From assembly GCA_027490575.1 (NCBI GenBank), contig JAIXXV010000032.1, positions 13,211-77,210 of the forward strand: 64,000 bases of DNA. The letters are read 5' to 3'. The position numbers and the translations under genes are program-made. This DNA comes from a bacterium (GTDB taxonomy: Bacteria; Patescibacteriota; Minisyncoccia; Phycocordibacterales; CAIZLB01). The notes under the pieces are model-generated. The model searched no databases. It had not been told where the DNA came from and saw only the letters and a program-made list of their open reading frames with translations. Position 1 is the stretch's first letter, and each line of letters starts with the position of its first letter. This document shows positions 414 to 63,764 of the stretch, piece by piece.

Positions 414-1541
414 ATGACAAATACAAAAGATTTGGAAAATGTGTCAGTTTCTAAAGAAGAAATGGCTCAGGCTCCCGTAAACCCAACGTACATGGGTAAA
501 CTATTAGCAGATACAGCCAATCCACCTAGTGTTGGAGACCTTGTAGAGGGTCCGGTTATCGCCATCGACAAAAAAGGTGTATTCATAGACCTGAAGCCGT
601 ATGGTACTGGTATTATCTTCGGAAGAGAGTACATCAACGCCAGAGATATCATCAGAAAGGTAAATGTTGGTGACAATATTGCCGCTAAGGTTGTAGAAAT
701 CAGTAATACTGATGGATACGTAGAACTTTCACTTAAAGAAGCTAAACAAGCCCTTATTTGGAATGAGGCTGAAGACGCTATCAAGTCAAAAGTCACATTT
801 GATATACCTGTACTTGAAGCAAACAAAGGAGGTCTACTACTATCATGGCAAGGTATTCACGGATTCCTTCCAGCATCTCAACTTAAAGCTGATCACTACC
901 CACGTGTAGAAGATGGTGATAAAGACAGAATCCTAGAAGAACTAAAAAAGCTTGTAGGCCAAAAGCTTTCAGTTACTATCATTGGTGCATCTCCAAAAGA
1001 AGGTAAACTTATCTTCTCTGAGAAAAACCCTGAGACTAAGGAGAAAGAACAAGCAGCTGGTAAGTACTCTGTAGGTGATGAAGTTGAAGGTACTGTTACA
1101 GGTGCAGTTGATTTCGGAGTCTTTATCAAGATAGAAGAAGGTCTAGAAGGACTTGTTCACATATCTGAGATAGACTGGGCACTTGTTGAGGACCCTAGAC
1201 TTCTATACAAAGTCGGAGACAAAGTTAAAGTTAAGGTTATAGAAATCAAAGACGGCAAGATATCTCTATCTATCAAGGCTCTAAAGGAAAATCCTTGGAA
1301 AGAAGCTGAGAAGAAATACAAGAAAGACGATATCGTTAAAGGTGTTGTTATCAAATTCAACAAGCACGGTGCACTTGCTAGTATCGAAGAAGGTGTTGCA
1401 GGACTTGTACACGTTTCAGAATTCGGTAGTGATATCAAACTTAGAGAAAAACTAGAGCTAGGAAAGATTTACACATTCAAGATCAATCTATTTGATGCAA
1501 AAGATCAAAAGATGGCGCTTGGGTTTGTCGACAAAAAATAA
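414..1541 (+). CDS. rpsA: S1 RNA-binding domain protein (ribosomal protein S1-like, four S1 repeats)
   Basis: 375-aa ORF with repeated GxxVxGxVxxIxxxGxFVxL-type S1 motifs (GDLVEGPVIAIDKKGVFIDL, GDEVEGTVTGAVDFGVFIKI, DDIVKGVVIKFNKHGALASI). TAA stop. Confidence 0.8.
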   Translation: MTNTKDLENVSVSKEEMAQAPVNPTYMGKLLADTANPPSVGDLVEGPVIAIDKKGVFIDLKPYGTGIIFGREYINARDIIRKVNVGDNIAAKVVEISNTDGYVELSLKEAKQALIWNEAEDAIKSKVTFDIPVLEANKGGLLLSWQGIHGFLPASQLKADHYPRVEDGDKDRILEELKKLVGQKLSVTIIGASPKEGKLIFSEKNPETKEKEQAAGKYSVGDEVEGTVTGAVDFGVFIKIEEGLEGLVHISEIDWALVEDPRLLYKVGDKVKVKVIEIKDGKISLSIKALKENPWKEAEKKYKKDDIVKGVVIKFNKHGALASIEEGVAGLVHVSEFGSDIKLREKLELGKIYTFKINLFDAKDQKMALGFVDKK

Positions 1542-11347: not shown

Positions 11348-11481
11348 TGTCGGACCATATCTCCAAACACGTAGCATGGAGTAACGGCCGAAAACCGTTG
11401 TTTCCTGGACCCGAAAAGTCCCGTTAATTTGGCACATTCAAAATACAAATGAGGGGCCGACACTTCTCGCACTCAAATACA
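11348..11481 (+). promoter_or_regulatory. Structured 5' leader of 2-TM gene B2, homologous to the B1 leader
   Basis: TGTCGG (11348-11353), two hairpins with identical CCGAAAA loops (11383-11399 and 11407-11421), CATTCAAAATACAAA (from 11435), GGGGCCGACA (11453-11462). The spacing from TGTCGG to CATTCA is 82 nt, against 81 nt in B1. Confidence 0.45.
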
Positions 11482-12249
11482 ATGAAACTCAGTGAAATCA
11501 ACTACCGCTTTACAGTCGAACCTGTATTGAGACTAATCCAATCCATGATGAAAAATGGCAATTACATCACTCCACAGAGCTCAAGCAGAACTCTGTCGAT
11601 GATGTTTTGGCTAAATTCGTCCATACGAAACGAGCTGATGCAATGGACTTTCAAAATTGGTCCATCGTGGCCAGAAGATCCAAATCCTCTAAAATCAATT
11701 ACAGGCGCAATGATTGCATTCATCATTGCATTAGCAGCAGGAGTGGCGCAGTACTTATTTCCAAATTTAGTACCATTTTTGATCATTTTCTTGCCCTCAG
11801 CAGTACTGTGTATTTACTGGACCACACTGTCTTTAGCCGCTGTGGTAGTCAGAATCAAAAAAGCATGCTTTCTTACTGACTTTATCAACATAGTTGGTAC
11901 AATACCGCTAATAAGGAGGCAGCATCTCATAAACCCTGGACATCGTGAAAGTAGCTATGATTACCTTGTCGTGGTGATGCTTTTGCAACAACTCATGAGT
12001 GTTTCCAAAAAGGTCAAAGGTAATACTGAAGACCCGAAGCTAAAAGATGAAGAGAAAAGGCTATATGACTCAGCCTTCAAACTTGGTGTACTAGGAGATG
12101 ACATCTCGGCCGTATACACGTTGGTATATCGGTTGATTGAGGAAAAGGAGCAAGGTAAACCTATAGGATCGGGTCAAAATAGCGGCGGAGATGGAGACGG
12201 CTTTCCAGAACCTGACCCAGACGCACTCCCGACAAGCGTCCTTGGTTAA
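11482..12249 (+). CDS. Orphan 2-TM membrane protein B2, tandem paralogue of B1
   Basis: The track ORF starts at 11449. ATG 11482 is preferred because it lies 29 nt after the GGGGCCGACA box (31 nt in B1). It has two TM helices, and its box DEEKRLYDSAFKLGVLGDDIS aligns with the B1 box. Confidence 0.55.
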   Translation: MKLSEINYRFTVEPVLRLIQSMMKNGNYITPQSSSRTLSMMFWLNSSIRNELMQWTFKIGPSWPEDPNPLKSITGAMIAFIIALAAGVAQYLFPNLVPFLIIFLPSAVLCIYWTTLSLAAVVVRIKKACFLTDFINIVGTIPLIRRQHLINPGHRESSYDYLVVVMLLQQLMSVSKKVKGNTEDPKLKDEEKRLYDSAFKLGVLGDDISAVYTLVYRLIEEKEQGKPIGSGQNSGGDGDGFPEPDPDALPTSVLG

Positions 12250-12307: not shown

Positions 12308-12346
12308 GACCACTGTACCTGATAGCAAAGGTATGGTGGTTTTTTA
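12308..12346 (+). terminator. Rho-independent terminator of B2
   Basis: gaccactgtacct / aggtatggtggt (2 mismatches) followed by tttttatttg. Confidence 0.65.
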
Positions 12347-12381: not shown

Positions 12382-12465
12382 CAATTCTTAATCCTTAATT
12401 CTTAATTTGCCGGTTCTGTTAATTCTGCGGGCAATTGTCAATTGCTAATTACTAATTACTAATTG
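12382..12465 (+). repeat. 7-nt periodic spacer, TAATTNN/CAATTNN class (12 heptads)
   Basis: caattct taatcct taattct taatttg ccggttc tgttaat tctgcgg gcaattg tcaattg ctaatta ctaatta ctaattg. The array overlaps the antiporter stop codon. Confidence 0.7.
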
Positions 12466-13832
12466 CTCACCTCCAACTTCCTCGCAACCCATTTAGTCAA
12501 AGGCGGTTGTATCACCAGAGTCATAATTATCACCCACATACCTATTGAGATAAGCATTTCAGGGTTACCAATATCGTATTTTGTCAAAAGACCACTGTAT
12601 GCAACTTGCACAAGAAGTACTGCTGGGATAACGCCAGTCTCTCGGACCCATGACATGAAGAGAAGCTCGCGAGTGTTAAGATCAATCTTCTTTGAAAAGA
12701 AACCGAGTGATAGAAATACTGAGGCAGGACGCACGATGAACATAAAGACAAGTCCGGCGAGTATTCCAAACCAAGCGTATTGTAGTAGCATTTGCACATT
12801 GACCAATGCTCCTAGGAGTATAAAGATACTTGGCTTTGCAATCCCCTCCACCAGCTGATTGAAAAATGTTTCTGTCTTGTGCACTTTTTCGTTCAATACA
12901 ACTAGAAGCCCTGCGATGAATGATGCTAAGTAACCACTTCCGCCAAACAGTACCGCAAATGCATATGCCATAATAGGGATAGCGATGAAGAAACCGATGT
13001 CGGCGTGGCACTCCGCACGCATTACCCTTTGTCTAACAAAAAATCGGATTGCAAAGAATCCGATAATACCAACTATTGACCCTACTACTAGCTCTTTTGA
13101 TAGGAAAATCATTGATTCCATAGAGACTAGTGCGCTAATACCTTGTGACATGTGCGTAAAAGCCCCTGCTCTTTCTACATACGTGATAAATGCCAATGTG
13201 ACCAAAGTACCAACCACGTCCGTCAATGCACTTTCTGAAACCAAGATGTCTTTGATACGGTCTTTCTTGAGCTTAAGCTCTTTGAACACAGGGATGATGG
13301 CTGCTGGATCAGTCGATGCAAGTATTGCCCCCAAAAGTAGTGCTAGCGACACGGACATTGTCATACCTGTCACTGTGCCGAGGACCGATAGACCTTGTGC
13401 CATAAAGAGAGTAGATGCCACAAGTCCGATGAAAGATAGTAGTACGGTAGGTAAAACTATTTTTCTAAATGATGAAAACGATATCTCCAAGCCTCCACCA
13501 AAAAGTATATATACCGCTGATATAGTAACTATCATGTTTAGAGCTGCGCTGTTTTCTATAAGTGGTTCCAACAAGTTGTGCATACTTAAACCTATAAACA
13601 AGGCAACTAGAAACGATGGAAATATTGTCCCCCTAGAGAGCGAGTGACAGATGGTACCCAGAAGAAACATTCCTCCTATCAAAAACAGTGGGGTTATACC
13701 CCCTACATGATCCACAGGAATCATTTCCGAATACTGTACAAACAATGCATTGAATATTGCAAAAACCGTAACACTGGTCAAAAGTATAAATGATGATGAA
13801 TGTCTCTTAAGCTTGCTTAGTTTGGCTATCAT
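12459..13832 (-). CDS. Monovalent cation:proton antiporter (CPA1/NhaP-type Na+/H+ exchanger)
   Basis: 457 aa with about 11-12 TM segments. The ASTDPAAIIPVF motif is typical of the Na+/H+ exchanger family. Confidence 0.8.
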   Translation of the reverse strand: MIAKLSKLKRHSSSFILLTSVTVFAIFNALFVQYSEMIPVDHVGGITPLFLIGGMFLLGTICHSLSRGTIFPSFLVALFIGLSMHNLLEPLIENSAALNMIVTISAVYILFGGGLEISFSSFRKIVLPTVLLSFIGLVASTLFMAQGLSVLGTVTGMTMSVSLALLLGAILASTDPAAIIPVFKELKLKKDRIKDILVSESALTDVVGTLVTLAFITYVERAGAFTHMSQGISALVSMESMIFLSKELVVGSIVGIIGFFAIRFFVRQRVMRAECHADIGFFIAIPIMAYAFAVLFGGSGYLASFIAGLLVVLNEKVHKTETFFNQLVEGIAKPSIFILLGALVNVQMLLQYAWFGILAGLVFMFIVRPASVFLSLGFFSKKIDLNTRELLFMSWVRETGVIPAVLLVQVAYSGLLTKYDIGNPEMLISIGMWVIIMTLVIQPPLTKWVARKLEVSN

Positions 13833-18978: not shown

Positions 18979-19509
18979 CTAAACCAAACTCCCCCACCTC
19001 TCCACATGACACGTATACCCACCTGGATTCTTCTGTAGGTAGTCTTGGTGATAATCCTCAGCTGACCAAAACTTTTTAAATGGTTCTAGTGTAGTGACGA
19101 CTGGATCTTTCCAAAGACCACTTTCATTTACAATCTTTATCATTTTTTCAGCATCTTGTTTTTCTTCTTCATCTTGATAGAAAATTGCGGATCTGTATGA
19201 AGAACCGATATCATTTCCCTGACGATTGACCGTAGTTGGATTATGAATTCTGAAGAAATAATCAAGTATTTTTAAATAACTCGTAACTGCTGGGTCGTAT
19301 GTTATTTCCATTGCCTCAGCGTGCGATTCTGCAGAATCGTGTCGCGCAATGTCCATTGAAGCGCGACCGTGACGCTCGTATGTAGGATTATCATTTTGTC
19401 CACCACTATAACCTACCTCAGAATCAATCACACCTTCTTGCTTTCTAAATAGCTCTTCCATTCCCCAGAAACATCCACCTGCAATATATGCTTTTTTATA
19501 GTTGTTCAT
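18979..19509 (-). CDS. msrA: Peptide-methionine (S)-S-oxide reductase
   Basis: Active-site GGCFWG near the N-terminus. 176 aa. Confidence 0.9.
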
Positions 19510-19543
19510 AATTACTAATTGTTAACTACCAATTGATAATTGC
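19509..19543 (+). repeat. msrA-msrB intergenic spacer made of exactly five TAATTNN-class heptads
   Basis: taattac taattgt taactac caattga taattgc. The array abuts the msrA start (cat 19507-19509) and the msrB stop (cta 19543-19545). Confidence 0.7.
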
Positions 19544-19947
19544 TATTCCTCCTTTTTAAAATCCAAAGAAATACTATTGATACAGTACCTATCACACACT
19601 CCGCCACTTGCTTTCACGGGACCATCTGGAAAAACATGACCTAGGTGTGCTCCGCATTTTTTACACAAAACCTCAGTCCTTCTCATACCATGCGTATCAT
19701 CTGGCACCAAAGTCACAGCTTCTACATCAGCAGGGTCTGTAAATGATGGCCATCCCGAACCACTGTCAAACTTTGTATTCGAAGAAAAAAGCTCAGTACC
19801 GCATACGGCACAGTGATACATACCGTTACCTTTCTCATTTACATGTTTCCCTACAAAAGGCGCCTCGGTTCCTTTTTCAAATGCGACTTTGTATAGTTCC
19901 GGATTTTTTTCTTTTAATTCCTCATGATTAGTGTTGGTGTTATTCAT
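19543..19947 (-). CDS. msrB: Peptide-methionine (R)-S-oxide reductase
   Basis: Two CxxC zinc motifs ([20 protein letters not shown]) and the SelR core. Confidence 0.9.
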
Positions 19948-27334: not shown

Positions 27335-27390
27335 CAGTTAGCAGGTATCAGATGACAGATATCAGTTGTCAGATAGCAGGTATCAGTTAG
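27335..27390 (+). repeat. 7-nt periodic spacer, CAGNTNN class (8 heptads)
   Basis: cagttag caggtat cagatga cagatat cagttgt cagatag caggtat cagttag. Starts directly after the prsW stop. Confidence 0.75.
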
Positions 27391-32160: not shown

Positions 32161-34515
32161 TTATTTAGCAACCGCCACCGCCTCATCAAAAGCTATAGAC
32201 AACAACTTAGAGTATCCCTCACCTCCCATCGTCACTCCGTATATAACACCAGCACGTGACATTGTCTCTCTATTGTGAGTTATAAGTATAAGCTGTGAAT
32301 GTTTAGACAAAGCCTCAATCATATCTCCATACTTTCTAGAGTTAGCCTCGTCGAGCGCTGCGTCTGTTTCATCTAGTATTACAAATGGTGGTGGATTTAC
32401 CTGTGACATTGCAAAGAGTAGTGCAATAGATGTTAGCGCTCGTTCACCTCCTGAGAGCATTGTAAGTCCCTTTATGCGTTTATGTGGCAAAGAAACATTG
32501 ATCTCAATACCTTCTTCGGCCGGTTCGTCACCATCTAGCTCTTCAGCAAGAGCAACTGACAAGTCACCACTGTCATCCTCCAGGTCACCCTTCTTTTTCT
32601 TTCGCTTTATTTCTTTTATGAGTTTAAGCTCGGCTGTACCACCTCCAAACATTAGTCCAAAAAACTTTCCAAACTCTTTATTGATTTTAGAAATACCATC
32701 CTTGAAAAGTTCACTGAGTTTTTGATTTAACTCATCTATCAGAAGTTTCAATGATTCTGAAGAAGTTATCAAATCTTGTAGCTCTTTCGCCAAGAAAATA
32801 TCCCTTTCCTCCGCATCTTTGTATTCTCGAACTATATCGTCGCCTCCACCGCCACCCATTTCCTCAAGTCTGATCTTTGATTTTTCCACAGCACGTCTTC
32901 TATCCACTTGGGCATGTCTATCTTCGACAACAGAGAAGTCAACTTCGGCGTTTTCATAATCCACAGCGTCTCTACCAACAAGCATGTGCGCCTCTTGTAT
33001 TTCACTTTTAAATTCTTCCTCCTCAACTCGAAGTCTTTCTTCTTTGGCCTTTACGGTCTCTATATGAGAATGTAACTCATTTTGCTTGGACATTATCACA
33101 AGTACAGCCTTTTCACTTTCAACATTCTTATCACGTTCTTTGTCTATATCCACTTTTATCTGTGTATATCTTTCTGATTGCTTTAATTCTTCTTCAGAAA
33201 ATGTTCTGAGTTTTTCCTCAAGAGTTTTCATTTCCTCGGATATGCGCTTTATCTCAGCTTCCTCTGTCTCAGTGCTGTTTTGCGGCTTCTCAACGTGATC
33301 TGATTCTTTGTGATAATTTACAAAACTACTAATACGCTCATGAATATCTTGGATAGATTGTTTTACGTAAGCCAATCTTTGTTCTGGAGATGCATTTGCA
33401 TGATCACCAATGCCGTCTATGGCTTCCAGAGCAACAGTTGCTTTGACGTCTATATCTTTTTGAATGAGCTCCACATCTTTCAAGTAGACTTGCTTAGTAC
33501 TTTGCACATCAATGTGGTTTTCTGACTCCTTTATCTTTTTATCTATAACTCTTTTTAGATATGAAATCTCACCTTCTAGTCGCCCTATCTCCCTGGTGCA
33601 AGAGTCTTTCTTGGCTCTAGTATCTCGCATCTCTTGCTCAAGTGACAAGAGTCCAGACATACTACTGCTTTGCCCTAGGTTGGCCTTTGCTTCATCCAGT
33701 ATAGACTTGTGGTGAACTAGCTCTTGGTGCAACTTTTCTAGCTCTTCTTGCGGAGCTTTCTTTTCATTTGACAGTCTAGCTTTCTCCATTTTTATATAAT
33801 GATTTTCACGAGCAAAATACTCTTTGTACATACCAACCAACTCTTGGCGCAAAACCACAGCCTTTTCAATCTTCTCCACCTGCTTCTTCAAAAATTTTAT
33901 ATGTGGTGCGATCTCACGCCTAAGTGACTCAATCTCTTTGATGTGATTACCCGTTTTCTCTAGCTTCTTTTCACTTTCTTGTTTTTTGTATTGATACACC
34001 TTTAGACCTAGTGCATCCTCTATCATCTCTCGCCTATCTTTTGGTTGAGCTGACAAAAGTCTATCAGCTTCACCTTGCGAAATGATATGGTGACCAGACG
34101 AGCCTATATTGGCATAAGCCAAAAGCTCCACGACATCTTTTAGTCGCACAAGCGTGCCGTTTATAAAATACTCATTAACACCATCTCTATGGACCACACG
34201 CTCTATAGAAATCTCATCGAAGTCCATGTTGAACATCCGGTTCGTATTATCGAAAACAACTTTCACTGACGCCCTGTTTGCACGCGCACTGTCCTTACCT
34301 CCGTTGAAGATAAGATCCTCGCCTTTTTTCCCTCTCATAGACTTGAGTGATTGCTCACCAAGCACAAAACGAAAAGACTCCGCCACATTTGACTTACCCG
34401 AGCCGTTTGGACCAACAATAGATGTTATAGGAGAAGTGAAGGTCAAAGATCCCTTTTTTGAAAATGATTTGAATCCGTTTATTTCTAGGGATTTTAGACG
34501 TGAGACGAAGGACAT
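32161..34515 (-). CDS. smc: Shortened SMC-family chromosome segregation ATPase
   Basis: N-terminal head FKSF...GPNGSGKSNVAESFRFVLGEQS. C-terminal head LSGGERALTSIALLFA...VILDETDAALD. A coiled-coil-like middle. 784 aa from ATG 34515. Confidence 0.8.
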   Translation of the reverse strand: MSFVSRLKSLEINGFKSFSKKGSLTFTSPITSIVGPNGSGKSNVAESFRFVLGEQSLKSMRGKKGEDLIFNGGKDSARANRASVKVVFDNTNRMFNMDFDEISIERVVHRDGVNEYFINGTLVRLKDVVELLAYANIGSSGHHIISQGEADRLLSAQPKDRREMIEDALGLKVYQYKKQESEKKLEKTGNHIKEIESLRREIAPHIKFLKKQVEKIEKAVVLRQELVGMYKEYFARENHYIKMEKARLSNEKKAPQEELEKLHQELVHHKSILDEAKANLGQSSSMSGLLSLEQEMRDTRAKKDSCTREIGRLEGEISYLKRVIDKKIKESENHIDVQSTKQVYLKDVELIQKDIDVKATVALEAIDGIGDHANASPEQRLAYVKQSIQDIHERISSFVNYHKESDHVEKPQNSTETEEAEIKRISEEMKTLEEKLRTFSEEELKQSERYTQIKVDIDKERDKNVESEKAVLVIMSKQNELHSHIETVKAKEERLRVEEEEFKSEIQEAHMLVGRDAVDYENAEVDFSVVEDRHAQVDRRRAVEKSKIRLEEMGGGGGDDIVREYKDAEERDIFLAKELQDLITSSESLKLLIDELNQKLSELFKDGISKINKEFGKFFGLMFGGGTAELKLIKEIKRKKKKGDLEDDSGDLSVALAEELDGDEPAEEGIEINVSLPHKRIKGLTMLSGGERALTSIALLFAMSQVNPPPFVILDETDAALDEANSRKYGDMIEALSKHSQLILITHNRETMSRAGVIYGVTMGGEGYSKLLSIAFDEAVAVAK

Positions 34516-34522
34516 GGTTTTA

Positions 34523-34578
34523 CAGTTATCAGTTAGCAATTAACAGTTAAAGAATTAAGAAATCAATAGTTAATCCAA
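34523..34578 (+). repeat. 7-nt periodic spacer (CAGTTAN grading into AATTAAN), 8 heptads, directly upstream of smc
   Basis: cagttat cagttag caattaa cagttaa agaatta agaaatc aatagtt aatccaa. Confidence 0.65.
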
Positions 34579-35396: not shown

Positions 35397-35438
35397 CCAA
35401 CTGTTAACTGCTATCTGATATCTGTCATCTGACACCTG
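35397..35438 (-). repeat. 7-nt periodic spacer, CAGNTNN class (6 heptads, minus orientation) abutting the nusB stop
   Basis: Minus strand reads caggtgt cagatga cagatat cagatag cagttaa cagttgg. Confidence 0.75.
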
Positions 35439-43405: not shown

Positions 43406-43488
43406 TTAGGAACTAACAATTGAAAATTGTCGATTGACACAAAGTCTGTCCGTGATAAAATACAATCACAATGGACTACAAAATGTAG

Positions 43489-44817: not shown

Positions 44818-46161
44818 TTAACCGATAATCCCCTTTTTCAACATGTTTTGTCTTTTGAATTCAGCAATTCTATTGTCGATACTTGGTTTGTTGTATTTGT
44901 AGAATGCATAACCAGCGATCGAACTCCACAGTATCATTGCCAATGTTATAACTATCATCTTTGGACCAAAGTCTATACCTGTTGCAGGTACTTGGTTTAG
45001 GAATACTCCAGATACAGGTACACCAGTTACAGGTGTTTGATCTCTGATAACTGTTACGTTAGAAGCTACAGTGTTTGCAAAGATGGTTGTAGCACAAGTA
45101 GCGCTTACACTTTGACCATTTACAAATGCAGTAACACTCGCTGTCTTGTATCCAGGTATGTTGTAAGATCTAGTTAACTGAGCAGAATTTCCGAAAAGTC
45201 CATCAGTTCCTGACCAGTTGTATGAAGTTGCACCCCAGATATTTCCATTTACATACATAGTCCATGTAACGTTTTGGTTTATGAATGCAGTTGCAGGTGT
45301 AGCTACACAGTAAGCTCCGATAGGATTTACAGGTGGTACATAAGTGTCTTGTATAAGAACATTACATGATCTAGTGATTGATTGATTACCAGATGTGATA
45401 GTTACATAAGCTGTCTTGTATCCAAGTGATGCAAATCTTCCCGTAAATGATTGACCTGATGCACTTATACCATCACTTCCTGACCATACGTATGTGTAGT
45501 TTCCAGAACCTCCAGAAGCAGTTGCCATGAAAGTTAGGTTTTGATTAACAAATGCAGTTGAAGGACTAATGATACAGTTACCATTTAGAGTAGGTTCGGA
45601 AGGAGTGTTTGTATTTGAACCACCGCCACCTAGTACAACTAGACTGATGTTGTTGTTGTTTACAGGGTTAAATGTGTTTGAGTTGTTGTTTGTTGCACTA
45701 GCTGTACTGTTGTTTGTGTTAGTGTTTGTATTTCTGTTGGTATTTGTGTTTGTATTAGTATTTGAAGTATATACATACGAAAGCTGAGGGGCAGGTGTAA
45801 ATCCAAAACCTCCTCCACCACCTACATTGTTGTAGACATATCTTTGAGCTGGGGCCGCAACGAATCCTCCACCTACACGGTTTTGAACAGGTTGTACGTA
45901 TCTTTGCGTAGGGGCTGAAAATACAGGGTTTGAATATGTTGTATTCAATCTATATCCTGAAGAAGGACTTGAGTATACAGGGTTAGAGTAAGTTGTATTC
46001 AATCTATACCCAGAACCCGTTGTTCCAACACCTGACAAGCCAGAGCTTGTTTTAGATGCAAAAGTAACTCCTGGAAACAGCGTCACAGAAGAGACCAAAA
46101 TGGCTAGAAATATGAATTTCCCCGCTTTTTGTAGACTTTTTATATTTGTAATTGTTTTCAT
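44818..46161 (-). CDS. Cell-surface protein: signal peptide, low-complexity Asn/Thr/Gly region, two PKD-like Ig domains, conserved C-terminal anchor module
   Basis: The repeat C-x-P-x-A-F-x-NQ...GSGNYTYVWSGSDG...GYKTAYVT occurs twice. The C-terminus is PVSGVFLNQVPATG + TM + KYNK...AEFKRQNMLKKG. Confidence 0.7.
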   Translation of the reverse strand: MKTITNIKSLQKAGKFIFLAILVSSVTLFPGVTFASKTSSGLSGVGTTGSGYRLNTTYSNPVYSSPSSGYRLNTTYSNPVFSAPTQRYVQPVQNRVGGGFVAAPAQRYVYNNVGGGGGFGFTPAPQLSYVYTSNTNTNTNTNRNTNTNTNNSTASATNNNSNTFNPVNNNNISLVVLGGGGSNTNTPSEPTLNGNCIISPSTAFVNQNLTFMATASGGSGNYTYVWSGSDGISASGQSFTGRFASLGYKTAYVTITSGNQSITRSCNVLIQDTYVPPVNPIGAYCVATPATAFINQNVTWTMYVNGNIWGATSYNWSGTDGLFGNSAQLTRSYNIPGYKTASVTAFVNGQSVSATCATTIFANTVASNVTVIRDQTPVTGVPVSGVFLNQVPATGIDFGPKMIVITLAMILWSSIAGYAFYKYNKPSIDNRIAEFKRQNMLKKGIIG

Positions 46162-56920: not shown

Positions 56921-56961
56921 TAATTCTTAATTGCTATCTGATAACTGTTATCTGCTACCTG
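56920..56961 (-). repeat. 7-nt periodic spacer, CAGNTNN class (6 heptads, minus orientation) running into the methyltransferase start codon
   Basis: Minus strand reads caggtag cagataa cagttat cagatag caattaa gaattaa followed by tg (ATG). Confidence 0.75.
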
Positions 56962-56972
56962 TAACCGTTTTG

Positions 56973-60656: not shown

Positions 60657-60662
60657 TTTTTG

Positions 60663-60753
60663 CAGTTATCAGGTGGTGGTTAGCAGATATCAGGTATCAG
60701 ATGACAGATATCAGGTATCAGGTATCAGGTATCAGATGACAGATATCAGGTAT
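60663..60753 (+). repeat. Longest 7-nt periodic array, CAGNTNN class (13 heptads) immediately upstream of lexA
   Basis: cagttat caggtgg tggttag cagatat caggtat cagatga cagatat caggtat caggtat caggtat cagatga cagatat caggtat. Confidence 0.8.
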
Positions 60754-60787
60754 CCATTAAATGCTAATGCTTAGATGCTGGAGTCTA

Positions 60788-60985
60788 TTAAAACATGAAT
60801 GAGGCGAGTGAGAATGTTCTAGCTAATGAAGCCTCACTTTCAAGTCTTCTCAATTGTAGCATGAGGTTCTTATGCTTTCGAGATTCCTTTTCATATGATT
60901 CTCCTTTTATGATTTTAAAATCTATTCTTTTGTTGATTGAGTTAAGCTCTCTTCTTATTGCAAACATAATTGTCATTTTTCTCAT
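60788..60985 (-). CDS. Hypothetical small basic protein (65 aa), first ORF behind the SOS-type promoter
   Basis: ORF only. No SD. Position between promoter 61038-61066 and lexA. Confidence 0.3.
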   Translation of the reverse strand: MRKMTIMFAIRRELNSINKRIDFKIIKGESYEKESRKHKNLMLQLRRLESEASLARTFSLASFMF

Positions 60986-61037
60986 GGTATTTATTTTGTT
61001 ATTTTTTAATGTTCTTTGTCTTTCCTTGTATGTTTAT

Positions 61038-61066
61038 ATAATAGGTGAACTATAGTTCACTGTCAA
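61038..61066 (-). promoter_or_regulatory. Consensus promoter with a LexA-box-like palindrome filling the spacer
   Basis: Minus strand: TTGACA gtGAACtataGTTCacc TATTAT. -35 is at 61066-61061 and -10 at 61043-61038. The palindrome GAACTATAGTTC (61047-61058) matches the Gram-positive SOS box core GAAC-N4-GTTC. Confidence 0.55.
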
Positions 61067-61102: not shown

Positions 61103-61144
61103 CAGATAACAGTTGGTAATTATCAGGTGACAGTTAGCAGTTAG
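61103..61144 (+). repeat. 7-nt periodic spacer, CAGNTNN class (6 heptads) overlapping the helicase stop codon
   Basis: cagataa cagttgg taattat caggtga cagttag cagttag. Confidence 0.7.
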
Positions 61145-62615: not shown

Positions 62616-63764
62616 CTAACCCTGCATCTTCTTTTTTGTCTTTTGTTGTTGCATTAGTTTAAATGCAGTAGCTATGTCTGAAACAGAGGCTTGTGCATTG
62701 GCACTAGATGATACAGTTGACGCATCAGACGCATTTGAGAAAGACACGAGTCTCTGATTTCCAAATGAGTAATATTTATGGAATACAAGTGCACCCAGTA
62801 AACTACTTAGCATTAAGCCCGTAAGCAAGATTGCGCTTTTTACGCCAGGAGTTACTCCTGTTGCAGGAACTTGGTTTAGGAATACACCCGAGACCGGCTG
62901 TCCAGAAACACCAGAAGTGTACTGGTACGTAGGTTGAACATAAGTATAAGTAGTCGGTTGTGTATATACAGGTTGTGTATATGTTTGTTGGTAGTTGTAG
63001 TCGTAAGGATAATAGTATTGATTTGGATTTTGATATTGCCAATTCCAAGTTTGATTTTGCCAAGTATTGTTCCAACTACTATTATTCCAGCCATTATTCC
63101 ATGTATTGTTCCAATTATTATTCCAGTTGTTATTTGTTCCATAACCAACTTGTACAAATAAACTTGCACAAGAAGTATTATTAAATGATGAGCAAATTGT
63201 GTAAGACATTGTACCTAATTGATTACCTGTAACTGTTATCTGGCTACCACTTATATAAGCACTAGCAATACTTGAGTTATTGTTATTTGAAATAAAATAT
63301 CCTCCGCCAGTACCTGAGATATTTACAGATTGAGTTTGCCCCACATTCAGAGTAAGACTTGTCTGACTTAAGCTTATGGTTTGATTATTCCATGTTCCAC
63401 CTGTCACATTGACCTGAAGCGTTGCACAAGGAGCCATAGACGCTTGCGAACATATAGTTAGACTTGATGTTCCTTGAGATAGACCTTGAACTTGCACTAG
63501 TCCACTTGATGATCCTGCACTTACCACGGTACTGTTTGAGTTTGCTGATACGTAGTAGTTACCTGATCCACCTGACACATTTACAGTAACTGTTTGACCT
63601 GAGTTTATATTTATAAATGACTGACTAAGATATATTGGTCCGTAGTAAGGGGTTGACTGTGCACTAGCAAAACCACCTGGCACCAAAAAAGATAGTGCAG
63701 ATAGGCATACTGAAACTGCGAAAATGGTGCTTTTTATAGCTATTTTTTTAGATATATTTGTCAT
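62616..63764 (-). CDS. Cell-surface protein: signal peptide, two Ig-like repeats, Trp/Asn- and Tyr/Gln/Thr-rich tract, and the same C-terminal anchor module as 44818-46161
   Basis: Repeats ...GQTVTVNVSGGSGNYYVSANSN... and ...GQTQSVNISGTGGGYFISNNNN... WNNNWNNTWNNGWNN tract. C-terminus PVSGVFLNQVPATG + TM + HKYY...AFKLMQQQKTKKKMQG. Confidence 0.65.
   Translation of the reverse strand: MTNISKKIAIKSTIFAVSVCLSALSFLVPGGFASAQSTPYYGPIYLSQSFININSGQTVTVNVSGGSGNYYVSANSNSTVVSAGSSSGLVQVQGLSQGTSSLTICSQASMAPCATLQVNVTGGTWNNQTISLSQTSLTLNVGQTQSVNISGTGGGYFISNNNNSSIASAYISGSQITVTGNQLGTMSYTICSSFNNTSCASLFVQVGYGTNNNWNNNWNNTWNNGWNNSSWNNTWQNQTWNWQYQNPNQYYYPYDYNYQQTYTQPVYTQPTTYTYVQPTYQYTSGVSGQPVSGVFLNQVPATGVTPGVKSAILLTGLMLSSLLGALVFHKYYSFGNQRLVSFSNASDASTVSSSANAQASVSDIATAFKLMQQQKTKKKMQG

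Follow-up and report, generated by a model that had tools for sequence, protein, structure and literature searches.

In the 64,000-nt stretch of contig JAIXXV010000032.1 that we analysed here (the window), which comes from an ultra-small bacterium of the Paceibacteria, a group within the Patescibacteria, short tandem arrays of the 7-nt units TAATTNN and CAATTNN occupy gaps between genes, in company with arrays of another heptad, CAGNTAN. The TAATTNN/CAATTNN heptads are the A-for-G variant, at position 3, of one heptad of the form Y-A-R-n-T-R-n that also forms the CAGNTAN arrays, and what the initial annotation had called a second flavour of heptad spacer is a mutational variant of the first and not a separate element. 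Judged by their sequences and anatomy, the arrays appear to belong to a known kind of bacterial repeat, the intergenic heptanucleotide tandem repeats that include the TAACTGA repeats, the short tandemly repeated repetitive (STRR) heptamers of cyanobacteria and the long simple sequence repeats (LSSRs). They probably arise by slippage and repeat-mediated indels at the DNA level, with turnover of the units, and selection would then leave them only in the untranslated spacers of a genome poor in Shine-Dalgarno (SD) sites. What is new here is the Patescibacteria as host phylum of this known kind of repeat, with a degenerate unit; a literature search joining Candidate Phyla Radiation (CPR) or Patescibacteria with heptamer repeats found no report.

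Three observations unite the two flavours: a common register, in-phase mixing within arrays and exchange of flavours at orthologous sites. In the register of 58 units from nine arrays, a pyrimidine stands at position 1 in 88% of the units, A at position 2 in 93%, G or A at position 3 in 100%, T at position 5 in 98% and a purine at position 6 in 97%, with positions 4 and 7 free (C being rare at position 7). This form accommodates TAATTAC, CAATTGC, CAGNTAN and also GAATTAA, which is a permutation of AAGAATT or AATTCTT. The broader form YARNTNN, proposed in the initial annotation, is borne out as far as the shared register goes, but position 6 is not free and the form is refined accordingly to Y-A-R-n-T-R-n. 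Mixing is seen at 34523-34578, 56921-56966 and 61103-61140, where AATT units stand in phase within CAG arrays; the first of these indeed grades, as had been described, from CAGTTAN into CAATTAA and AGAATTA units (Table 1). At orthologous sites of sister genomes the flavours replace each other, as detailed below, and the proposal that both are one phenomenon is therefore supported.

The phasing of these arrays is not an effect of base composition. Runs of AATT might be chance low complexity devoid of real phasing, given that the window's intergenic DNA is AT-rich and that the array between msrB and msrA is short and imperfect (lag-7 identity 0.61). Every cited region, however, stood out from 5000 dinucleotide-preserving shuffles per region, scored for identity at lag 7 and at any lag from 3 to 12: lag-7 identities were 0.58-0.82, with P <= 0.0006 at lag 7 and P <= 0.003 for any lag 3-12. 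For the two arrays beside the antiporter gene, here called A and B, the shuffle P values were 0.0002 (lag-7 identity 0.82) and 0.0004, respectively, and for the msrB-msrA array 0.0006. Three consecutive YAATTNN units were matched 6 times (at one site, counting both strands) against 0.01 expected, and three consecutive NARNTAN units, with an expectation of 0.25, had 12 matches distributed over 7 intergenic sites. Tandem Repeats Finder (TRF) called period 7 at 12383-12407, 12440-12464 and 34522-34550. In a sliding scan of the window, period 7 was the only period not divisible by three to give strong arrays; at the strictest setting it gave 4, against 0-1 for periods 4, 5, 8, 10, 11 and 13. Consistently, the pooled intergenic DNA (8.1 kb from the 65 gaps of the window's map of open reading frames, ORFs) has a lag-7 peak of 0.314, compared with about 0.285 at adjacent lags, and an echo at lag 14, whereas the coding DNA of the window shows only multiples of 3 and no lag-7 signal. 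The initial annotation had allowed that the phasing might dissolve into AT-rich low complexity under statistical scrutiny; it holds in shuffles, in pattern counts and in the comparison of intergenic with coding lags. Sister genomes, moreover, carry arrays at the same sites. We regard a chance origin as virtually ruled out.

Arrays occur in nine gaps of the window, counting a weak candidate at 43417-43437 (Table 1), and make up about 5% of its intergenic DNA. The gaps are co-directional, convergent and divergent. They include the convergent gap at 12382-12466 and those between msrB and msrA (19509-19543), between the PrsW-like and HSP20 genes (27335-27390), between rnc and the SMC gene (34523-34578) and between NusB and rnc (35397-35438). 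In the ORF map all nine arrays are intergenic, save for an overlap of one unit with the 3' end of the antiporter gene. They occupy 3' trailers, the gaps between cistrons and 5' leaders as far as the stop and start codons themselves. Every array except that in the divergent gap has a stop or start only a few bases away from at least one of its ends, which in the 12382-12466 gap holds for array A only.

The heptads of that gap had been given the span 12382-12465. Its period-7 arrays are real, but the last unit ends at 12466, and the heptads form two sub-arrays, B (12382-12409) and A (12432-12466), that are mutually out of phase (offset 50 = 7x7+1). Array B lies between array A and a terminator-like hairpin. 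The overlap of array A with the antiporter stop was described correctly: the TAG at 12459-12461 of this ORF (12459..13832, minus strand, Pfam Na_H_Exchanger) falls within the array, and the final two codons of the antiporter (AGC AAT) are array sequence. The msrB-msrA array, likewise, spans five units as had been noted when the A of the msrA ATG (complement of 19507-19509) and the G of the msrB TAG (complement of 19543-19545) are counted in, which gives 35 nt; the gap proper is 33 nt.

Table 1. Heptad arrays and accompanying features in the window, and selected arrays in related loci (L numbers)
Feature	Coordinates	Strand	Sequence and context
Terminator-like hairpin with T run	12308..12341	+	For the upstream plus-strand gene 11449..12249; context only; kept in L169
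Array B, 4 units, AATTCTT type	12382..12409	-	Plus strand caattct taatcct taattct taatttg; minus strand AAATTAA GAATTAA GGATTAA GAATTGG
Single taattct unit	12420..12426	.	Between arrays A and B, in phase with neither; direct reading
Array A, 5 units	12432..12466	-	Plus strand caattgt caattgc taattac taattac taattgc; antiporter-sense (minus) strand CAATTAG TAATTAG TAATTAG CAATTGA CAATTGC
msrB-msrA spacer array, 5 units	19509..19543	-	Plus strand taattac taattgt taactac caattga taattgc; sense strand (TA)G CAATTAT CAATTGG TAGTTAA CAATTAG TAATT A(TG)
CAGNTRN array, 8 units	27335..27390	+	Directly after PrsW-like stop, 57 nt before HSP20 start
Mixed array	34523..34578	+	Directly upstream of SMC start (ATG complement 34514-34516); plus strand CAGTTAT CAGTTAG CAATTAA CAGTTAA AGAATTA AGAAATC AATAGTT AATCCAA
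CAGNTRN array, 6 units	35397..35438	-	Directly after NusB-NUDIX stop, upstream of rnc
Weak three-unit AATT-type candidate	43417..43437	+	CAATTGA AAATTGT CGATTGA; convergent gap; direct reading
Mixed array	56921..56966	-	Abuts methyltransferase gene start; minus strand CAGGTAG CAGATAA CAGTTAT CAGATAG CAATTAA GAATTA-ATG
Longest array, 13 units	60662..60754	+	CAGATAT/CAGGTAT/CAGATGA, with a 35-nt higher-order duplication; divergent gap between LexA-like S24 peptidase gene and 86-aa ORF
Mixed array	61103..61140	+	CAGATAA CAGTTGG TAATTAT CAGGTGA CAGTTAG CAG; ends at Pif1-like helicase stop, convergent gap; shuffle P=0.0014
Inverted array pairs	L098:17107-17207; L108:8557-8653; L134:8480-8567; L115:5093-5186; L138:2862-2956; L142:2414-2499		Related loci
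In-ORF arrays	L011:582-617; 923-961; 1008-1051; 1181-1221		GACTGAT; CATGCTC; AAATTGG; AAATTTG, respectively

Sister genomes were reached through homologs of RNase III and MsrA. They comprise one 771-kb Joint Genome Institute (JGI) contig (L004/L169) of about 85% nucleotide identity to the window, L008/L170 at about 80% and L006 at about 70%. The RNase III homologs were labelled Candidatus Paceibacterota, Taylorbacteria or Patescibacteria, the top match among GTDB representatives reaching 80%. In this comparison the site of an array is kept in sister species, and unit number and flavour turn over. After the antiporter stop, L169 has CAGATAG CAGATGT CAGTTAG CAGTTAA CAGATAG TAGTCGG where the window has the YAATTAG-type array A, and in both genomes the array at the stop is followed by a GAATTAA array (GATTAA GAATTAA GAATTGG in L169, the counterpart of array B) and by the conserved hairpin. 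The NusB-rnc gap holds CAGNTRN units in the window but GAATTAA units in L004 and L005, and the PrsW-HSP20 gap CAGNTRN units in the window but three GAATTAA units in L004. Upstream of the SMC gene L008 reads CAGTTGT CAGTTAT CAGTTAG CAGTTAA TAGTTAA, and the CAATTAA of the window matches a CAGTTAA unit there. Copy number changed by a clean 7-nt step between conserved anchors in a single case, the PrsW-HSP20 array, which is one unit longer in L008/L170 (9 units) than in the window (8 units). Two contigs with identical RNase III differ by a 26-nt indel that has AAGAATTGG repeats at its flanks. Contigs with identical MsrA were 100% identical to the window and showed no copy-number difference there, and at 70% identity L006 had no array at any of the three sites compared.

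One contig from the Logan collection, encoding an identical LexA-like protein, ends inside the 13-unit array (L171:1-61 = window 60657-60717); the arrays, including the 35-nt higher-order duplication, therefore break short-read assemblies. A duplication of another kind was noticed in the closest sister genome, where a perfect 158-nt tandem duplication (2.1 copies; L169:15727-16062) extends from the 3' end of a tRNA-Val gene and is missing in the window; it may be an integration-site or att-like duplication.

The spacer between msrB and msrA is 33 nt long in L169 too, with 5 substitutions relative to the window, which is about the background divergence, and in L170 it is degenerate and 35 nt long. 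In more distant relatives the distance is 0-10 nt, which indicates that the 33-nt spacer is a lineage-specific insertion. The last codons of msrB (AAA AAG GAG GAA TAG; 19544-19560 on the minus strand, also L169:9950-9967) contain AAGGAGG. If the 33-nt spacer were removed, only 5 nt would separate this motif from the msrA ATG, a distance ideal for an SD site; with the spacer in place it is too distant. The motif is missing in more distant relatives. The array may have been inserted between an old SD site and its start codon, or AAGGAGG may be a coincidence of KKEE codons.

A further idea, which the widened msrB-msrA gap would fit, is that the units are kept for their stop codons: as the period is not divisible by three, one stop triplet in each unit would reach every frame within 21 nt, and an array could serve as a frame-independent translational insulator that uncouples cistrons. 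Arrays indeed begin at or overlap the stop codons at 12459, 19543, 27333, 35439 and 61141, and on the sense strand no array leaves any of the three frames open. The initial annotation had stressed that every TAATTNN unit carries a TAA. On the plus strand this is so, but the two focal arrays, if transcribed, go with minus-strand genes, and there the units read YAATTAG, CAATTGA, CAATTAT and the like; several, such as CAATTAT, CAATTGG and CAATTGC, hold no stop of their own. Furthermore, any period not divisible by three would serve this purpose, yet only period 7 is enriched; frames close quickly in AU-rich intergenic DNA anyway; and in one relative heptad arrays lie in frame within a coding gene (see below). 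Arrays also occupy convergent and divergent gaps, in which there is nothing to uncouple, and because convergent 3' regions hold them too, uncoupling is not needed to explain them. Insulation is thus an improbable reason for the existence of the arrays.

The family to which the arrays seem to belong has been described in several bacterial groups. They conform to the general class of heptanucleotide repeats, being 7-nt tandems of at least three copies in non-coding DNA with a period-7 excess. The closest match is with the TAACTGA direct repeats, which are abundant between genes in Beggiatoaceae, 15 cyanobacteria and 5 Bacteroidetes (MacGregor 2015, PMC4679880). Those repeats stand near the starts of genes without SD sites, differ between strains by 7-nt indels, are mixed with other heptamers in some species, show a mixed picture of orientation and placement in Microcystis, and have no established function (PMC4679880). 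The window arrays share with them a 7-nt head-to-tail unit in 2-13 copies, an almost exclusively intergenic location, in some arrays an end only a few nt from the start of SD-less genes, and the mixing of heptamers. Among the differences from close relatives one is a clean 7-nt step, and the others are replacements of flavour or the 26-nt indel flanked by repeats. SD usage is low in both, at 25% in the genomes with TAACTGA repeats (PMC4679880) and about 14% in the window. TAACTGA is, moreover, the reverse complement of CAGTTAT in permuted form, and the array before the SMC gene ends on the sense strand in ...TAACTGA TAACTGT AAAACC ATG.

The two sets also differ. The window unit is the degenerate Y-A-R-n-T-R-n and not an exact TAACTGA, which occurs once in the window, followed by TAACTGT, upstream of the SMC gene; the other units are one or two base changes off. 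TAATTGA was described as a single-base TAACTGA variant with few doublets (PMC4679880), whereas the AATT flavour of the window makes full arrays. On the sense strand most window arrays are 'reverse' (CAG) in orientation, and they come after stops, while TAACTGA repeats are mostly 'forward' and precede starts; beside starts, the SMC and LexA-like genes have forward arrays, and msrA and the methyltransferase gene reverse ones. Lastly, the Patescibacteria lie outside the reported distribution of TAACTGA repeats.

Other repeat systems resemble the arrays more loosely. STRR heptamers of cyanobacteria include CCCCAGT, TTGGTCA and CAACAGT. They too are non-coding heptanucleotide tandems with several unit types per genome, placed near starts or promoters, but their units are other ones and mostly exact, their arrays are often longer, and they belong to another phylum. 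In Nostoc, heptamers near start codons are reported to affect reporter expression (bioRxiv 10.1101/2022.06.06.494920), whereas the window arrays are known from sequence alone. Heptanucleotides were the commonest LSSR class in many genomes, with polymerase slippage proposed as their origin, in the account of Mrazek et al. 2007 given in PMC4679880. The window arrays are like LSSRs in that period 7 outnumbers the other periods that are not multiples of three. LSSRs, however, form a statistical class lacking unit specificity, while the window units share a core and vary unevenly across positions. Tandem TTTTGAT heptads also lie in intergenic DNA at the ctxAB promoter of Vibrio cholerae, where the number of copies reportedly influences expression by recruiting DNA-binding regulators (bioRxiv 10.1101/2021.05.14.444153); they concern one promoter locus with known binders, and the window arrays many loci with no promoter association. 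The phase-variable simple sequence repeats (SSRs) of contingency loci in host-adapted pathogens are also short tandem repeats that change length by slippage. They lie in reading frames or in the spacers between -35 and -10 boxes and switch genes, while the window arrays sit in trailers and spacers of housekeeping genes with no promoter overlap. A contingency SSR was rejected as an explanation, the arrays being outside ORFs (bar the one-unit antiporter overlap) and, in scans around four of them, spanned by no sigma-70-like promoter.

The setting in which the arrays occur is poor in canonical translation signals. An SD-like motif precedes 10 of the 70 genes of the window (about 14%, or roughly 1 in 7) and is missing in front of every gene that directly follows an array. 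In many window genes a TATAAT-like box, such as gtgatataatttttacATG, ttgtataatgggtaaataATG or atgttataatcaaaacaaATG, stands 8-20 nt ahead of the ATG, which suggests leaderless or very short-leader mRNAs; the starts concerned by the box or by the scarcity of SD sites include 58609, 37888, 17237 and 2752. Promoter and terminator consensus scans around four arrays found nothing on the arrays beyond chance, and the sole terminator-like site in these scans, 12308-12341, lies outside them.

It is highly improbable that the arrays act as terminators, RNase III sites or stability elements by virtue of secondary structure, with slipped hairpins or pairs of inverted arrays forming in RNA or DNA. RNA folding of ten array segments, with z scores taken against shuffles, showed that the CAGATAT/CAGGTAT arrays do fold better than shuffles (z -3 to -4); this is expected of partly palindromic repeats, since any tandem repeat of such a unit beats shuffles without having a function. 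The AATT arrays fold no better than shuffles (z -0.6 to -1.9), no terminator-like sites lie on the four arrays scanned for them, and an Rfam scan of the whole window found two tRNAs only and no family at the arrays. A structured RNA element, an intrinsic terminator or a hairpin like those of repetitive extragenic palindromic (REP) sequences was rejected on folding, Rfam and terminator position alike. Arrays A and B were considered as an inverted pair, and the long interrupted hairpin that they can form is not significant (z -0.59). Inverted pairs are absent from the window but present in several relatives (Table 1), where two heptad arrays about 20 nt apart, e.g. TAGGTAT... followed by ACCTACC..., would each pair into an imperfect hairpin about 30 bp long. 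Some pairs are directly upstream of rnc (RNase III) or nusB, and they could be RNase III substrates.

In the reading that we favour, the arrays would be born and remodelled by slipped-strand mispairing and repeat-mediated indels in 7-nt steps, and they would persist only where a frame-independent, weakly structured and SD-free filler is tolerated. Neighbouring cistrons such as msrB and msrA would be pushed 33 nt apart as a consequence, and the downstream gene would then start on an AU-rich, SD-free leader and not by tight stop-start coupling.

Several observations weigh against such a largely neutral origin. Deviations from the majority base of the unit's own array number 10, 4, 7, 22, 1, 16 and 27 at positions 1 to 7, which is far from even (overall P=6e-8; P=1.5e-6 when only unique unit types are counted and 7e-6 when the longest array is left out); the same unevenness is found in the arrays of sister genomes (P=3e-4), and neutral slippage with random mutation does not predict it. 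At a nucleotide divergence of about 15-20% arrays still occupy the same places, and the genomes concerned, of about 0.7-0.8 Mb, are of a kind from which useless DNA is expected to be lost. The A-R-n-T-A theme appears again in distant phyla, where TAACTGA is a permuted CAGTTAT, and of the 6 window cases that are unambiguous, 5 have the NARNTAN reading on the sense strand. Slippage itself, finally, was not observed, the public contigs being either identical to the window or broken inside an array. The uneven variation across positions suggests that a sequence-specific reader with a 7-nt register may exist.

It is possible, although on the whole unlikely, that the arrays are multi-site ligands of a nucleic-acid-binding protein that reads the C-A-R..T core in a 7-nt register and tunes the flanking genes. 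Its target would be mRNA leaders and trailers, or DNA, and its effect would be on translation, stability or transcription; slippage would only supply the raw material, and AATT units would be versions of the site that are tolerated or bound with lower affinity. Candidates for the reader would be proteins with an OB-fold, cold-shock or S1-type domain, or oligomers that form a ring as HutP and TRAP do. Cold-shock domains bind about 6-7 nt, and the ligand of TRAP consists of (G/U)AG repeats separated by short spacers. HutP recognises three XAG motifs in a 21-mer RNA (PMC2425495), and binding of S1, Csp or CsrA has been proposed for the TAACTGA repeats (PMC4679880). The likeness to HutP and TRAP, which is an analogy only, lies in an AG-containing core at fixed short spacing with free spacer positions, three heptads making 21 nt; the window arrays differ in being at many unrelated loci and on both strands, and the AATT flavour has no AG.

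Binding of this kind would fit the conservation of particular positions, seen in both flavours and in sister genomes, the retention of arrays at orthologous gaps of streamlined genomes, their contact with the starts of SD-less genes and the sense-strand bias just mentioned. A weaker trend is found in other lineages, in which the two most variable positions of the unit hold 68% of the deviations, against 63 +/- 1.8% under the null; adjacency of these two positions (23 of 52, with 17 expected) was not significant. The idea is opposed by the lack of an orientation rule, as the 44 arrays between co-directional genes of Paceibacteria show no strand preference (21 versus 23), by the conservation of the SMC array in the opposite orientation, and by the presence of arrays in convergent 3' gaps. 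Flavour, number and presence also vary among close relatives, and L006, with an identity of about 70%, lacks the arrays. A Pfam scan of 20 window proteins revealed none of the cold-shock, S1 or HutP-like type, the window being about 8% of such a genome.

Period-7 arrays are not confined to the closest relatives of the window. In 80 Paceibacteria loci (1.19 Mb) we counted 39 strict period-7 arrays, compared with 0-4 for each of periods 4, 5, 8, 10, 11 and 13, and 62 of 81 arrays in related loci are intergenic. The units depend on the lineage (AAGTATC, AGCTAGN, TAGGTNN, CAGTTTA, GTAGTAC), and many retain the A-R-n-T-A theme. A metagenome search with MsrA returned relatives of at most 65% identity only, and these loci, used as background, hold 25 period-7 arrays of many different units. 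Among the contigs so found, unrelated ones with a GC content of 52-64% carry heptad arrays with units of their own, namely TATCCGT/AAATCCA, CAGTTGC, ATTTTCG and CAGTTGN with an inverted partner (L050, L068, L074 and L088); period-7 intergenic arrays are therefore widespread, with lineage-specific units.

One relative, L011, has heptad arrays inside a gene. Its PrmC/HemK-like ORF (420..1349, minus strand), downstream of an RF1-like ORF, contains four different in-frame period-7 arrays within the coding sequence (Table 1), which encode stretches such as ISNFQFPISN and KFQISNFKFQI, and a fifth array, of four AAAATTA units, fills the gap to the upstream gene (region L011:420-1419). Heptad arrays, it would seem from this, can form at any place and last even inside genes if the frame is kept. 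Within the window itself, period-6/12 tandem repeats lie inside ORFs at 45711-45764 and 63079-63134 (TRF scores 52-69); these are presumably coding repeats unrelated to the heptads. The 86-aa ORF at 60795..61055, which has no Pfam match, is flanked on both sides by CAG-type arrays of the same orientation and stands between the genes for the LexA-like S24 peptidase and the Pif1-like helicase.

Intergenic heptamer repeats have been known for decades in cyanobacteria, and since 2015 in Beggiatoaceae and Bacteroidetes, with no accepted function. Their occurrence in Patescibacteria is of interest in that these tightly packed genomes of about 0.7-0.8 Mb nevertheless have room for arrays, which take up about 5% of the intergenic DNA of the window and keep their positions across species while the flavour turns over. 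For annotation, the arrays account for ORFs that end in repeats, for SD-less starts that abut repeats and for breaks between contigs. One may speculate, more tentatively still than for a reader in the window alone, that sites in a 7-nt register, with a core of about 5 bases and about 2 free positions, are read throughout the Paceibacteria lineage by an abundant putative nucleic-acid-binding protein, which would organise expression at the boundaries of genes in these ultra-small genomes poor in SD sites and in regulators, and that such sites also underlie the TAACTGA and STRR heptamers. According to this speculation, the units would drift by lineage, as among CAGNTRN, YAATTRN, GAATTAA, AAGTATC, AGCTAGN and TAGGTNN. 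A small proteome shortens the list of possible binding partners, and a 7-nt-register reader within it, if real, would make the function of bacterial heptamer repeats directly testable.

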